64,000 bases of DNA from Ignavibacteriota bacterium (lineage in GTDB: Bacteria > Bacteroidota > Ignavibacteria > UBA10030): the NCBI GenBank assembly GCA_963701295.1, contig OY969585.1:2336001-2400000 (forward strand), in the 5' to 3' direction. Below the pieces are notes generated by a model. The model saw nothing but the letters and a program-made list of their open reading frames with translations. It searched no databases and had not been told where the DNA came from. Shown piece by piece: positions 20,053-41,951 of this stretch. Position numbers and translations under genes: made by a program. Within the stretch, counting starts at the first letter, position 1. Each line of letters starts with the position of its first letter.

Positions 20053-20081
20053 TTGACTTTACTCCGATCCTTGGGTATATT
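20053..20081 (+). promoter_or_regulatory. sigma70 promoter of tRNA-Ala
   Basis: TTGACT-N17-TATATT. Confidence 0.6.
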
Positions 20082-20094
20082 TTATTCGAATGAT

Positions 20095-20168
20095 GGGCCG
20101 TTAGCTCAGCATGGGAGAGCGCCACAATGGCATTGTGGAGGTCACCGGTTCGAGCCCGGTACGGTCCA
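20095..20168 (+). tRNA. tRNA-Ala(GGC)
   Basis: Cloverleaf: acceptor GGGCCGT/ACGGTCC with G3:U70, anticodon arm CCACA-ATGGCAT-TGTGG, T loop TTCGAGC. Confidence 0.95.
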
Positions 20169-20170
20169 CG

Positions 20171-20200
20171 AAAAGGACAATCCAATCGATTGTCCTTTTT
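20171..20200 (+). terminator. Terminator hairpin after tRNA-Ala (duplicated near 20514-20543)
   Basis: AAAAGGACAATC / GATTGTCCTTTT perfect 12-bp stem. Confidence 0.7.
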
Positions 20201-20206
20201 CTTATT

Positions 20207-20476
20207 ATGTTTTCAATGTACATACTTCAAAGTAGTACTTCCGGTCGGTATTATGTAGGTCATACAGATAAAATATCTCGTCGACTAACTGAGCATAATT
20301 CAGGAATGGCGAAATATACTCGACAGGAAAAGCCATGGAAAGTGGTGTATGTAGAAAATTATGCCACACGTTCAGCGGCGATGAAACGAGAGTCAGAAAT
20401 TAAAAGAAAGAAGAGCAAAAAGTATATCGAAAGACTGATTGAATCGGGAGAGCGTCCCGACACGACGGAGTCGTGA
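20207..20476 (+). CDS. GIY-YIG nuclease family protein (89 aa)
   Basis: MYILQS...RYYVGHT...RRLTEHN...KYT...PW...E...A.KRE..IK. Confidence 0.9.
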   Translation: MFSMYILQSSTSGRYYVGHTDKISRRLTEHNSGMAKYTRQEKPWKVVYVENYATRSAAMKRESEIKRKKSKKYIERLIESGERPDTTES

Positions 20477-20544
20477 CGGGAAGGTCACCGGTTCGAGCCC
20501 GGTACGGTCCACGAAAAGGACAATCCAATCGGTTGTCCTTTTTC
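20446..20544 (+). pseudogene. Partial duplicate of tRNA-Ala with replaced anticodon arm
   Basis: 20482-20544 repeats 20139-20201 with 1 mismatch; GGGAGAGCG of the D arm retained at 20446. Confidence 0.85.
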
Positions 20545-21040: not shown

Positions 21041-21064
21041 CAAAAATAAATGTTCTTTGAGAAG

Positions 21065-21158
21065 TTCCTTTAATTCCTATCCAGCGAGGTAGGAAAGGGA
21101 TATGATGATAGTATTGGACTGCCCCCTTTTCCTAATTCAATGGAACTGGGGGTTTTTT
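21065..21158 (+). promoter_or_regulatory. PyrR-binding attenuator leader
   Basis: CCTTTAA...ATCCAGCGAGGT...GAAAGG matches the PyrR binding loop; downstream CCCCC..GGGGG-TTTTTT terminator whose 5' arm (CCCTTTTCCT) can alternatively pair with AGGAAAGGG. Confidence 0.85.
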
Positions 21159-21178
21159 CATTTTAAGAAAGGTGGATC

Positions 21179-33218: not shown

Positions 33219-33303
33219 GAATCAAATATTGACTTTCAACGAAAAGTCTGGTAGTTTTAAACAATCTTTTTTGGTCCCGCTGAGGTCCAGCGGGATTTTT
33301 ATT

Positions 33304-39521: not shown

Positions 39522-41951
39522 ATGAAAAAATATTTGATCATCCTGCTTTTTCTGATCGAACAGCTCGACGCACAAACGATTGATCAGATCGAAAAAAACC
39601 GGATCATTCTTCCCAACGGGTGGTCATTAACCCCGGTGGGGAAAAGTCTGCCTCTCGGTGATCTCCCGCTTAATCTTGCTGTCTCACCAGATAAAAAAAT
39701 GCTCGCAGTCACCAACAATGGACAAAGCACGCAGAGTATCCAGCTTATTAATATCTTCAAAGGCATGATCACCGACACGAAAGAGGTTCGAATTGCTTGG
39801 CTGGGACTTGCATGGAGTAACGATTCCAGAACACTTTACGCCTCGGGCGGCAACGGGAATTACATAATGCAGTTCGATGTTCGAAACGGCAAAATCATGC
39901 CCCGTGACAGCATCGTCGTTGGAAGACCGTGGCCCGAAGAAATCTCCGTCGCCGGAATCGCGCTTGATGATGACCGTCATCTACTGTATGCCGTGACAAA
40001 AGAAAACAATTCGCTCTACGTGATCAATGTGAAAGAGAAAAAGGTTGTGAAAACCATTCCCCTCGGTGGTGAAGGATATACATGCATTCTTTCGCCGGAT
40101 AAAAAGATGCTCTATGCTTCCTGCTGGGGTTGTGATAAAGTAGTGATATTCGATACACAAAAAATGGCGATTGCCGGATCGGTTGTTGTCGGCGATAATC
40201 CGAATGAGCTGCTTTTAAACTCTAACGGTTCACTGCTCTATGTGGCGAATGTAAACGACAATTCGGTCTCAGTCATCGATAGACGCCGGCGGAAAGTGAT
40301 TGAAACGTTAAACGCTGCCCTCTACCCTGATGCGCCGAGCGGATCGACCACAAACGGCATTGCTCTGAGTAAGGACGAAAAAACACTTTACGTCGCCAAC
40401 GCCGATAATAATTGTTTGGCGGTGTTTGATGTGGCACGACCCGGCCATAGCAAAAGCAGGGGGTTTATTCCGACCGGGTGGTATCCCACCTGTGTCCGTG
40501 TTGTGGACAATACAATTTTTGTCGCCAATGGAAAAGGATATTCCTCCCTGCCGAACCCGCACGGTCCGAATCCGATGAAGAAAGAAACAAAAGTGGAATA
40601 CCAGAAAGGAATCGAGTCTGCCGAAAAAGAGCAGTACATCGCAGGCTTGTTCATCGGCCGACTTGGCATTATTCAAGTTCCTAATGAAAAACAGCTTTCC
40701 AAGTATTCACAGGTCGTTTATCGAAACACACCCTATTCGAAAGAAAAAGAGACACAAAGCTCTGGGCGACCGGGTAATCCGATCCCCATGAAATCAGGCG
40801 ACACTTCACCAATCAAGCATGTCTTCTATATCATCAAGGAAAACCGGACATACGACCAGGTGTTGAGTGATATCCCCGGAGGAAATAGCGACACTTCTCT
40901 GCTCCTTTTTGGTGAAAAAGTGACGCCGAACCAGCATGCACTTGTAAAAGAATTTGTCCTCTTCGATAATTTCTATGTCGATGGAGAGGTCAGTGCCGAC
41001 GGCCATAACTGGAGCCTCGGCGCATATGCAACGGATTATCTCGAAAAGAACTGGCCCACGGTTTATGGAAATCGCGGCGGTTCGTTTGACGCAGCAGGAA
41101 CGCGCGATATTGCGAATAATAAAAATGGATTTATCTGGGATTTCTGCAAACGGTACGGGATCACGTATCGGACATACGGCGAATTCATGGACGACTATAA
41201 ACCGAATATCCCGGCGCTTGAAAATCACTTCTGCCCGTATTACACGAGCTGGGACCAGACGGTGATGGACACAACCAGGTTACGACAGTGGAAACGGGAA
41301 TTCGATTCGCTCCTCACAATCGGAGCAGTTCCGCAACTCAACACGCTCTGGTTCATCAACGACCATACCGAAGGACTTAAACTCGGGCGACCGACACCGA
41401 TAGCCGAAGTAGCAGATAACGATCTGGCAGTCGGTCTTTTTATCGACTATCTGAGTCACAGTAGCATCTGGGACAGTAGCGTCGTCTTCATCGTGGAAGA
41501 TGACGCTCAGGACGGACCCGACCATGTGGACGCACATCGAAGCACATTGTATCTTGCGGGCGGATTTGTAAAACGACACTACATCGATCATACGATGTAT
41601 TCCACGTCGAGTGTATTGCGAACGATCGAACTGATTCTGGGACTACCACCCATGAGTCAATATGATGCCGCCGCTGAACCACTCTGGAGAAGTTTTACAG
41701 ACACTATTAATGTATCCGCCTTCAATTCAATTTATGCAAAAGTGGATTTATTTGAAAAGAATACTGCGATGAATGAATGGCAACGGAAGAGTGACCAGTT
41801 CGATTTCGGTAAAGAAGATCGCGTCCCTAATGTCATGTTTAATGAAGTCCTTTGGGCTGCAATAAAAGGAGGCCGTATCCCGTGTCCATCTCCGCGGCAC
41901 GCTGCCTTTGTGAATTCTGTTGTTGGACAGGAAAACCAAGGTAACGAATAA
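39522..41951 (+). CDS. YncE-like beta-propeller / phosphoesterase (alkaline phosphatase superfamily) fusion
   Basis: LPNGWSLTP, LYVAN repeats, PIKHVFYIIKENRTYDQV, SADGHNW, EDDAQDGPDHVDAHRS. Confidence 0.9.
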   Translation: MKKYLIILLFLIEQLDAQTIDQIEKNRIILPNGWSLTPVGKSLPLGDLPLNLAVSPDKKMLAVTNNGQSTQSIQLINIFKGMITDTKEVRIAWLGLAWSNDSRTLYASGGNGNYIMQFDVRNGKIMPRDSIVVGRPWPEEISVAGIALDDDRHLLYAVTKENNSLYVINVKEKKVVKTIPLGGEGYTCILSPDKKMLYASCWGCDKVVIFDTQKMAIAGSVVVGDNPNELLLNSNGSLLYVANVNDNSVSVIDRRRRKVIETLNAALYPDAPSGSTTNGIALSKDEKTLYVANADNNCLAVFDVARPGHSKSRGFIPTGWYPTCVRVVDNTIFVANGKGYSSLPNPHGPNPMKKETKVEYQKGIESAEKEQYIAGLFIGRLGIIQVPNEKQLSKYSQVVYRNTPYSKEKETQSSGRPGNPIPMKSGDTSPIKHVFYIIKENRTYDQVLSDIPGGNSDTSLLLFGEKVTPNQHALVKEFVLFDNFYVDGEVSADGHNWSLGAYATDYLEKNWPTVYGNRGGSFDAAGTRDIANNKNGFIWDFCKRYGITYRTYGEFMDDYKPNIPALENHFCPYYTSWDQTVMDTTRLRQWKREFDSLLTIGAVPQLNTLWFINDHTEGLKLGRPTPIAEVADNDLAVGLFIDYLSHSSIWDSSVVFIVEDDAQDGPDHVDAHRSTLYLAGGFVKRHYIDHTMYSTSSVLRTIELILGLPPMSQYDAAAEPLWRSFTDTINVSAFNSIYAKVDLFEKNTAMNEWQRKSDQFDFGKEDRVPNVMFNEVLWAAIKGGRIPCPSPRHAAFVNSVVGQENQGNE

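Follow-up and report, generated by a model that had tools for sequence, protein, structure and literature searches.

A 343-bp unit that comes and goes at tRNA-Ala(GGC) in Ignavibacteriota: a candidate selfish cassette with a small GIY-YIG nuclease gene and a hairpin-plugged tRNA part-copy

Several described systems come close to the locus reported here. SsnA, a single-domain GIY-YIG nuclease, is reported to bind a hairpin with a TCCCG...CGGGA core and to cut single-stranded DNA a few nucleotides upstream of it, and its authors propose an IS- or REP-like selfish origin for Ssn, similar hairpins being scattered in the genome (PMC11893778, Chenal et al. 2025). SegB of phages T4 and T6 is described as a free-standing GIY-YIG homing endonuclease of tRNA clusters (PMC2330249), which together with recombination proteins is reported to amplify the tRNA-segB unit (PMC13096335). 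For the stand-alone Slx1-like or UPF0213 proteins of prokaryotes, a role as repair nucleases and mostly vertical inheritance have been described (Dunin-Horkawicz et al. 2006, PMC1564403). Finally, integrase islands are reported to be bracketed by a tRNA gene and a same-orientation fragment of it, with crossover subsites in the anticodon loop and the T loop (Islander, PMC4383910).

The present locus lies in the window, by which we mean the whole 64-kb stretch of DNA that was analysed, and places a small GIY-YIG gene between an intact tRNA-Ala(GGC) gene and a part-copy of that tRNA in which a hairpin replaces the anticodon arm. The genome of the window is called G000, and loci elsewhere in it are given on contig G000:C1. 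The features of the locus are as follows:

20053..20081, + strand: sigma-70-like promoter of the host tRNA gene (TTGACT-17-TATATT, 10/12), outside the 343-bp unit
20095..20169, + strand: intact tRNA-Ala(GGC), the landing site (ARAGORN; Rfam RF00005, 57.7 bits)
20122..20138, + strand: native 17-nt anticodon arm, missing from the part-copy
20139..20201, + strand: direct repeat copy 1, tRNA nt 45-75 and intrinsic terminator (terminator at 20170-20200)
20207..20476, + strand: 89-aa single-domain GIY-YIG gene of the Slx1 lineage (PF01541)
20446..20454, + strand: retained tRNA nt 19-27 (D loop and 3' strand of the D stem), the left homology of the plugged copy
20455..20481, + strand: 27-nt TCCCG...CGGGA hairpin plug in place of the anticodon arm, the predicted recognition site of the nuclease
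20482..20544, + strand: direct repeat copy 2, T arm, acceptor 3' strand and terminator

This tRNA is the sole Ala(GGC) gene of the G000 genome, and a sequence similar to its promoter is also present upstream of the tRNA in empty alleles. The two copies of the direct repeat (20139/20482) start 343 nt apart, and its first 63 nt, comprising T arm, acceptor 3' strand and terminator, contain one mismatch. Aligned with tRNA-Ala, the plugged copy reads as nt 19-27, a deletion of 17, an insertion of 27 and nt 45-75, with GGGAGAGCG (tRNA nt 19-27) present again at 20446-20454; 11 nt are retained here in genome G002 (L006). The open reading frame (ORF) runs into the tRNA copy, and its stop codon, TGA at 20474-20476, lies inside the hairpin. 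The original prediction had described the duplication, the 343-bp unit, the kept 3' strand of the D arm and the exchange of 17 for 27 nt with the stop codon, all of which were confirmed in the sequence. Folded as DNA, the hairpin at 20455-20481 reaches -14.5 kcal/mol (z -3.85), and none of 200 shuffles was equally stable.

An assembly artefact was considered and rejected. The junction and hairpin are identical in the independent genomes G009, G013 and G002 (the hairpin in G008 too), and the stretch from the ORF end through the hairpin to the T arm is spanned by contigs from three of four public DNA runs (X1, X3 and X6), which come from close relatives that differ in up to about 10% of the letters. 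Hence the 343-bp unit is real. No run from the window's own strain turned up, all runs found sharing less than 0.15 of the sequence words. Four metatranscriptome runs yielded only short contigs of relatives, three of which cross the terminator into the ORF and none of which cover the hairpin; DNA carry-over being possible, these contigs were left out of the evidence. Elsewhere in the window, a PyrR-binding-site-like leader at 21063-21160 (+; RF00515, 47.6 bits against a gathering score of 54) lies ahead of a gene for a phosphoribosyltransferase, likely pyrR, and of what appear to be pyrimidine genes, and a TCCCG...CGGGA hairpin with flanking T runs is found at 33275-33295 (+), just 5' of tRNA-Phe(GAA).

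The ORF at 20207-20476 encodes 89 aa followed by TGA and matches Pfam PF01541 (E 1.7e-17, 63.9 bits). The catalytic Tyr, Arg, His and Glu of GIY-YIG nucleases are all present, and Y5, Y16, G18, R26, H30 and E62 are invariant among 18 aligned relatives. An AlphaFold model (pLDDT 88.9) is confident except for the tRNA-derived tail, which is predicted to be disordered and to follow a terminal helix (71-80). In VIA-align comparisons, the best fold matches of this model were HIGLE and Slx1 (7wme, Z 8.4, rmsd 3.0, 87 aligned; 6seh, 7.9; 7cq2, 7.0), with lower Z for I-TevI (5.9) and UvrC (5.1), while the best PDB sequence matches were the UPF0213 proteins 1ywl and 1zg2 (E 1.9e-10 and 1.9e-8). Pfam matches were of the GIY-YIG type only, an appended DNA-binding domain being absent, and NCBIfam, PHROGs and PADLOC gave no match for the ORF. 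The protein is a minimal domain of the Slx1 lineage without a DNA-binding extension.

Like the Ssn proteins (CDD cd10448), this is a single-domain GIY-YIG protein of about 90 aa whose gene adjoins a short hairpin, and the outer stem of the plug is the NTS core TCCCG...CGGGA, this 5-bp outer stem being the only part shared. Unlike Ssn, the plug has no CGTCAT flank, and one hairpin lies within a tRNA duplicate instead of repeats on both sides. The degenerate SRM pattern has no match within 1 kb of the unit or at five tRNA-linked paralogue loci and matches one of 189 related loci; it is a weak test, since it also misses the Ssn-like gene of the G000 genome itself. The latter, a longer GIY-YIG gene at G000:C1:2938878-2939195 (-) with no tRNA near, is labelled Ssn-like by its flanking GTCATTGCGA-type repeats, some of which hold a nested TCCCG hairpin; the 89-aa protein shares 30% identity with it over 66 aa, and on the tree the Ssn-like gene occupies a long branch apart from the Ala clade. 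The term 'tRNA' does not occur in the main text of the Ssn paper (PMC11893778).

As with SegB, a GIY-YIG gene lies beside tRNA genes, T-loop sequence is involved and tandem tRNA-nuclease units occur. SegB is described as phage-borne, as a cutter of double-stranded DNA and as lacking a tRNA-isotype preference, whereas the present unit sits in a chromosome, has a minimal protein of the Slx1 lineage and shows tRNA specificity by clade; furthermore, a hairpin plug or duplicate tRNA fragment is absent from the parts of the SegB descriptions drawn on here (PMC2330249; PMC13096335). With the UPF0213 and Slx1-like proteins the unit shares the minimal domain, the best PDB sequence matches (1ywl, 1zg2) and the HIGLE/Slx1 fold; unlike UPF0213, it occurs as several tRNA-tied paralogues per genome, patchily and often broken, and four UPF0213-like loci have no tRNA. 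REP/RAYT and IS200/IS605 systems use HUH transposases with a covalent tyrosine intermediate. The unit differs from them in its hydrolytic GIY-YIG fold and in having tRNA genes as target, and is like them in linking a small nuclease gene to dispersed palindromes and, presumably, to action on single-stranded DNA (PMC11893778). As in integrase islands, an intact tRNA gene and a same-orientation fragment lie around inserted DNA; unlike these islands, the unit has no integrase, its 343 bp fall below the 2-kb filter described for Islander, and its fragment is internal and hairpin-interrupted. Since it has no SRM match, no appended binding domain and no integrase, we file the unit under no known system, and in its working it may combine traits of Ssn-SRM pairs with those of free-standing homing nucleases.

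At the tRNA-Ala(GGC) site, the unit or its remains were found in 8 of 16 genus genomes, the other eight having no GIY-YIG gene there. It is intact in G000, G009 and G014, has an internal stop in G004, is present in two copies in G002, is cut by a contig end in G003, persists as two plugged remnants in G008 and, judged across a contig break, appears to fill the site in G013. Empty alleles had been suggested as a check and were found in half of the genus genomes: the tRNA and terminator run straight into a DUF971 gene in G010, G012, G005, G011 and G007, and into other DNA in G001, G006 and G015. The close relative G010 is shorter by exactly 343 bp (DUF971 offset 115 vs 458). Filled and empty alleles are intermixed in both main clades of a leuS tree, and every filled allele seen at the site keeps an intact tRNA gene. 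Among 14 loci of other genera, G050 is filled, with a plug that is a perfect-stem variant. The empty alleles can equally come from plain deletion between the 63-bp repeats.

One transfer tract was clearly resolved, in G014. Its first terminator and the two ends of its ORF agree with the G000/G009 lineage at 0.87-0.97, whereas its flanks match the same lineage at only 0.61-0.69; flanks and last terminator match G012/G005 at 0.80-0.97, and the middle of the ORF is nearest to G050. It follows from this pattern along the unit that the foreign tract starts in or near the tRNA and ends at most about 45 nt past the hairpin. Judged by these matches, the G014 copy is a horizontally acquired tract confined to the unit. 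The last terminator of G014 resembles that of the empty relative G012, and its first terminator that of the G000/G010 lineage; on this basis repeat copy 2 (20482..20544) is likely the host's original 3' half. Between G014 and G002, furthermore, the hosts are close (leuS pS 0.52) and the ORFs far apart (pS 0.78). Inside the G000 clade, dS is similar for the ORF (0.26-0.46) and leuS (0.26-0.37), and therefore vertical descent with deletion also contributes.

A survey for recurrence of the architecture had also been proposed. Among the matches listed, at least 38 of 41 genomes match the GIY-YIG family; 109 loci were taken from 150 listed of 220 matches, 108 of them with a hit. Among these listed matches, a same-strand tRNA lies within 300 bp in 88 of the 108 loci, an opposite-strand tRNA alone in none, and a part-copy of the tRNA lies beyond the ORF in 80 of the 88 tRNA-linked loci; the remaining 20 comprise seven with tRNA pieces at contig ends or gaps, nine of a sister clade and four UPF0213-like loci. 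In GTDB, the best 80 of 271 matches show a tRNA in 61, a part-copy in 49 and a plug in 32, with 4 of 300 random windows reaching the score of a GTDB locus as the null; within these best 80 of 271, part-copies occur in ten named phyla, and the nearest named relatives are Ignavibacteriota records. Tandem arrays of near-identical units reach 14 units of about 298 bp (L061) and seven of 305 bp (L062), and both orientations are found inside one protein clade. The survey thus recovered the same architecture at many tRNAs and in many phyla, together with the tandem expansion that had been anticipated. At E <= 1e-10, 7,859 cluster representatives match a profile built from 18 relatives, though not all of them are expected to be of the same kind.

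Searching with the DNA motif and without the protein gave 128 loci among the matches listed. Thirty-two of these lie inside ARAGORN calls, 23 looking like genuine tRNAs and nine like near-whole plugged copies, six of the nine with a GIY-YIG gene. For the 33 listed non-tRNA motif loci with full flanks, a same-strand GIY-YIG gene was found at 19, an opposite-strand one at none and a tRNA at 30. In viral contigs, a protein scan with a six-sequence alignment returned 33 pattern matches, none of which was confirmed; the DNA motif occurs in six viral contigs, two with a GIY-YIG gene and the other four with matches within called tRNAs. On one contig of the viral collection (L363:150-620), a GIY-YIG gene and plugged Ala copies lie opposite in strand to an apparent tRNA-Ala, an exception to the same-strand rule. 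At L302:190-850, eight tandem ORF-less plugged 5' copies of tRNA-Val at 72-bp spacing are followed by an intact tRNA and a GIY-YIG gene.

In the G000 genome, tRNA-linked paralogues lie at C1:3297422-3297850 (-), 3414881-3415250 (-), 2067100-2067541 (-) and 40457-40705 (+). Those at Leu(CAA) and Cys have hairpin-interrupted 5' copies upstream, that at Ser(CGA) is frameshifted and has a T-loop double hairpin, and a remnant lies before tRNA-Asn. A decayed, ORF-less copy of tRNA-Gln(TTG), which carries both a TCCCG hairpin and a double hairpin in the T loop, sits right behind the gene (G000:C1:2549660-2549765, -), and small scars like it adjoin Leu(TAG), Thr(CGT), Met and Gly(GCC). A looser genome-wide scan for pseudo-copies (threshold 13) gave 24 rows, most of which look like chance, and only the clear rows were used.

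The sister clade consists of small GIY-YIG genes (SH-aLRT 100) with no tRNA near and a unit of about 280-295 bp: L089:729-1005, L095:2928-3209, L097:224-511, L099:737-1014, L105:367-662, L119:711-999, L120:681-968, L121:377-664 and L130:719-996. These genes are closely flanked by terminal inverted repeats of 10-11 bp or longer (CCCCGTGAGAT...ATCTCACGGGG), and the copies in L097 and L130 appear to interrupt what we take, from its motif, to be an integron-type integrase gene. The clade looks like a separate IS-like mini-element.

The plugs themselves follow a pattern in which the outer sequence is fixed and the inner structure free, the inner pairs covarying. Across the family, 85 of 106 plugs fold better than all 30 of their own shuffles, and in a set of 79 distinct TCCCG...CGGGA plugs the two stem positions that follow are variable in sequence, with Watson-Crick pairs in 69/79 and 60/68. 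At inner stem positions 6-8 of the 79 plugs, G-T and A-C occur 10 and 8 times, with no clear excess, and this bias does not separate folding as RNA from folding as DNA. The proteins group according to tRNA and hairpin family rather than genome. On trees of 89-91 columns with many open forks, and with a GTDB set fetched by likeness to the Ala-protein clade, the tRNA amino acid changes 15 times (shuffles at least 51) and the genome 79 times (shuffle mean 77), and plug family changes 13 times (at least 16 in 500 within-tRNA shuffles), tests that make the signal look more significant than it is, given related rows that are not independent and short alignments. TCCCG plugs lie beside 55 of 61 rows of the clade that holds the 89-aa protein, across 11 tRNA amino-acid labels, and CCCGCC/CCTGCC plugs (10/10) fall in the other protein clade.

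The same stem is also met in tRNAs proper. The 23 apparently genuine tRNAs of the 128 motif matches listed, mostly Val and Ala, use TCCCG/CGGGA as anticodon stem (L256, L263, L265, L267, L270, L273 and others). Because of these, conservation of the plug stem could partly reflect tRNA origin, and the plug may descend from a TCCCG/CGGGA tRNA arm or may itself have converted such an arm. The hairpin had been called foreign in the original prediction; foreign to tRNA-Ala it is, but its 5-bp stem is a natural anticodon stem in some tRNAs of other organisms. In the G000 genome, TCCCG...CGGGA pairs are enriched (116, vs 33-48 at control spacings), and hairpins also occur there on their own, as do plugged copies without an ORF. 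A longer dispersed repeat, which includes a perfect TCCCGAC-3-GTCGGGA hairpin with identical flanks, was also found there in nine identical copies (G000:C1:226327, 234901, 2413184, 2474609, 2479986, 2828989, 3164688, 3557431 and 3563836), which are probably the end of an IS or of another repeat family.

Since the unit is present or cleanly absent in close relatives and recurs beside many tRNA genes, it is probably an integrase-free selfish element, and the suspicion that it is a minimal selfish unit gains from the tandem arrays and precise empty alleles. That it is a mobile cassette we hold with considerable confidence. With moderate confidence, and by analogy with the systems above, we favour a selfish cassette that comes and goes at tRNA-Ala(GGC) through a hairpin-guided nicking nuclease and host recombination; mobility is supported, and the chemistry of the nuclease is a reading from sequence. 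The nuclease would recognise the TCCCG...CGGGA hairpin of its own unit when the DNA is single-stranded or extruded, and would nick beside the plug, at a position that presumably leaves an end in tRNA-derived sequence. Host homologous recombination, probably using RecA, would then pair the tRNA-derived repeat with a real tRNA gene, with insertion, amplification or deletion as the outcome. Because the crossover could fall on either side of the plug, one working tRNA would survive at either array end. Expression would be low, by read-through of the tRNA terminator, and the same activity may seed loose hairpins into tRNA loops and intergenic DNA.

The alternative that survives best, although we think it unlikely, is homing in the manner of SegB: the nuclease would cut the native tRNA gene in the anticodon arm or T loop, repair from the donor would copy in the unit, the plug would be an immunity scar, and residual cutting of the intact copy would drive arrays and decay. 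Indeed, the preference of plugs for native tRNA stem-loop boundaries and the T loop would also be explained by a tRNA-cutting enzyme. Near-pure insertions at T-loop positions 55-57 make up 20 of 79 distinct tRNA/junction pairs and occur in 13 of 20 tRNA types, and these positions belong to the motif that SegB is reported to recognise (PMC2330249; PMC13096335). The clustering of proteins by tRNA, the exact swaps of whole anticodon arms in six tRNA types (Ala, Val, Pro, Met, Leu and Gly copies) and the plugs stacked in successive loops of single copies (L096, L100, L127) point the same way. However, an intact, unplugged tRNA lies no more than 40 bp from the ORF, which speaks against immunity of the filled allele. 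A conserved sequence would moreover be superfluous for immunity, whereas the outer stem does not vary and follows the protein clade. Of the two signalling roles originally suggested for the hairpin, that of a recognition signal is plausible, its family tracking the protein clade and its outer stem being the NTS core, and that of an immunity signal is doubtful, every filled allele keeping an intact, unplugged tRNA gene beside the nuclease. The protein also fits homing poorly, with 89 aa in one domain, no appended DNA-binding region and Z scores of 7.0-8.4 for Slx1 vs 5.9 for I-TevI, and neither the protein scan of viral contigs nor PHROGs yielded a relative.

A passive passenger, or a repair or defence nuclease useful to the host, is distinctly improbable; it would have been captured once per tRNA through ordinary duplication, inherited vertically and lost by deletion between the repeats, its hairpins coming from an unrelated REP-like system. 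Among intact orthologues with measurable dS, dN/dS is 0.14-0.24, and the ORF is under purifying selection at about 0.2, as this explanation would have it; inside the G000 clade ORF divergence equals host divergence, T-loop hairpins of other families were secondarily added in G004 and G014, and loose hairpins and ORF-less plugged copies are on record. That selection is accompanied by frequent decay, and the long near-identical arrays and many broken copies argue against a passenger, as do the repetition of the exact architecture at many tRNAs and in many phyla, the G014 tract bounded by the unit, the lack of a PADLOC match and a plug family that tracks the protein clade.

We regard as very improbable that the plugged copy is a functional tRNA-mimic RNA, a decoy or antitoxin, with the protein as its paired RNase or toxin. 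The plug keeps the geometry of the arm exactly, ARAGORN accepts nearly whole copies (9 of the 128 motif matches listed, six with a GIY-YIG gene), and ORF-less plugged copies are tandemly repeated in L302. At the Ala locus, however, the copy lacks nt 1-18, and the best upstream acceptor partner pairs at 5/7 positions with wobble allowed; the copy has no RF00005 match at E <= 1 and overlaps the ORF. The inner stems of the 79 plugs show no clear excess of G-T over A-C, and SsnA is reported to be inactive on RNA (PMC11893778). The tRNA mimic that had been entertained for this locus is rejected, given that the copy is without the acceptor 5' strand and the D-stem 5' strand, has no Rfam tRNA match and has no promoter-like site.

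An ordinary integrase att scar, that is, a degenerate satellite served in trans by a tyrosine integrase whose displaced fragment was later given a hairpin, is scarcely credible, for although a tRNA gene with a same-orientation 3' fragment is a reported island signature (PMC4383910) and the G000 genome has 14 PF00589 matches, all 14 lie outside the window, no integrase is in or near the unit, tRNA sequence (nt 19-27 and 45-75) lies on both sides of the plug in place of one end fragment, the terminator is duplicated too, 343 bp leave in our judgement no room for arm sites and cargo, and both orientations occur in one protein clade, so that the original view of the locus as something other than such a scar stands.

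In searches of a mainly open-access literature, GIY-YIG genes accompanied by hairpin-plugged tRNA duplicates were nowhere described, although the supplementary tables of the Ssn work could include such loci, and a paper on tRNA gene fragments (PMC9897764) contains no occurrence of GIY, nuclease or hairpin. The Ala(GGC) locus is a clean and intact representative of the tRNA-lodged nuclease-hairpin cassettes, a kind that is widespread and apparently unpublished. It is a good test case, with an intact ORF, an exact arm swap and an exact empty allele in a close relative, and it offers a natural pair of native and plugged substrates.

The selfish-cassette reading suggests a probable way of life for a great many small GIY-YIG genes that lack an explanation and points to integrase-free colonisation of tRNA genes, joining the stories of Ssn with its hairpins and SegB with its tRNAs. 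It also gives the many TCCCG...CGGGA palindromes and tRNA pseudo-copies of Ignavibacteriota, Bacteroidota and CPR genomes an origin that can be tested, and plugged pseudo-copies there can mislead tRNA callers. Tentatively, and as a possibility towards which we do not yet lean, these cassettes may form a widespread and novel class of mobile elements that ranks with the smallest autonomous ones, in which a hydrolytic nuclease of ~85 aa plants sequence-specific hairpins at tRNA stem-loop boundaries or swaps them in there, the plugged duplicate serves as a universal recombination handle, and spread between taxa proceeds without integrase or transposase, with hairpins seeded genome-wide. If so, small GIY-YIG genes now annotated as repair nucleases would, in their thousands, be such elements, and each nuclease-hairpin pair would be usable as a specific cutter of single-stranded DNA.
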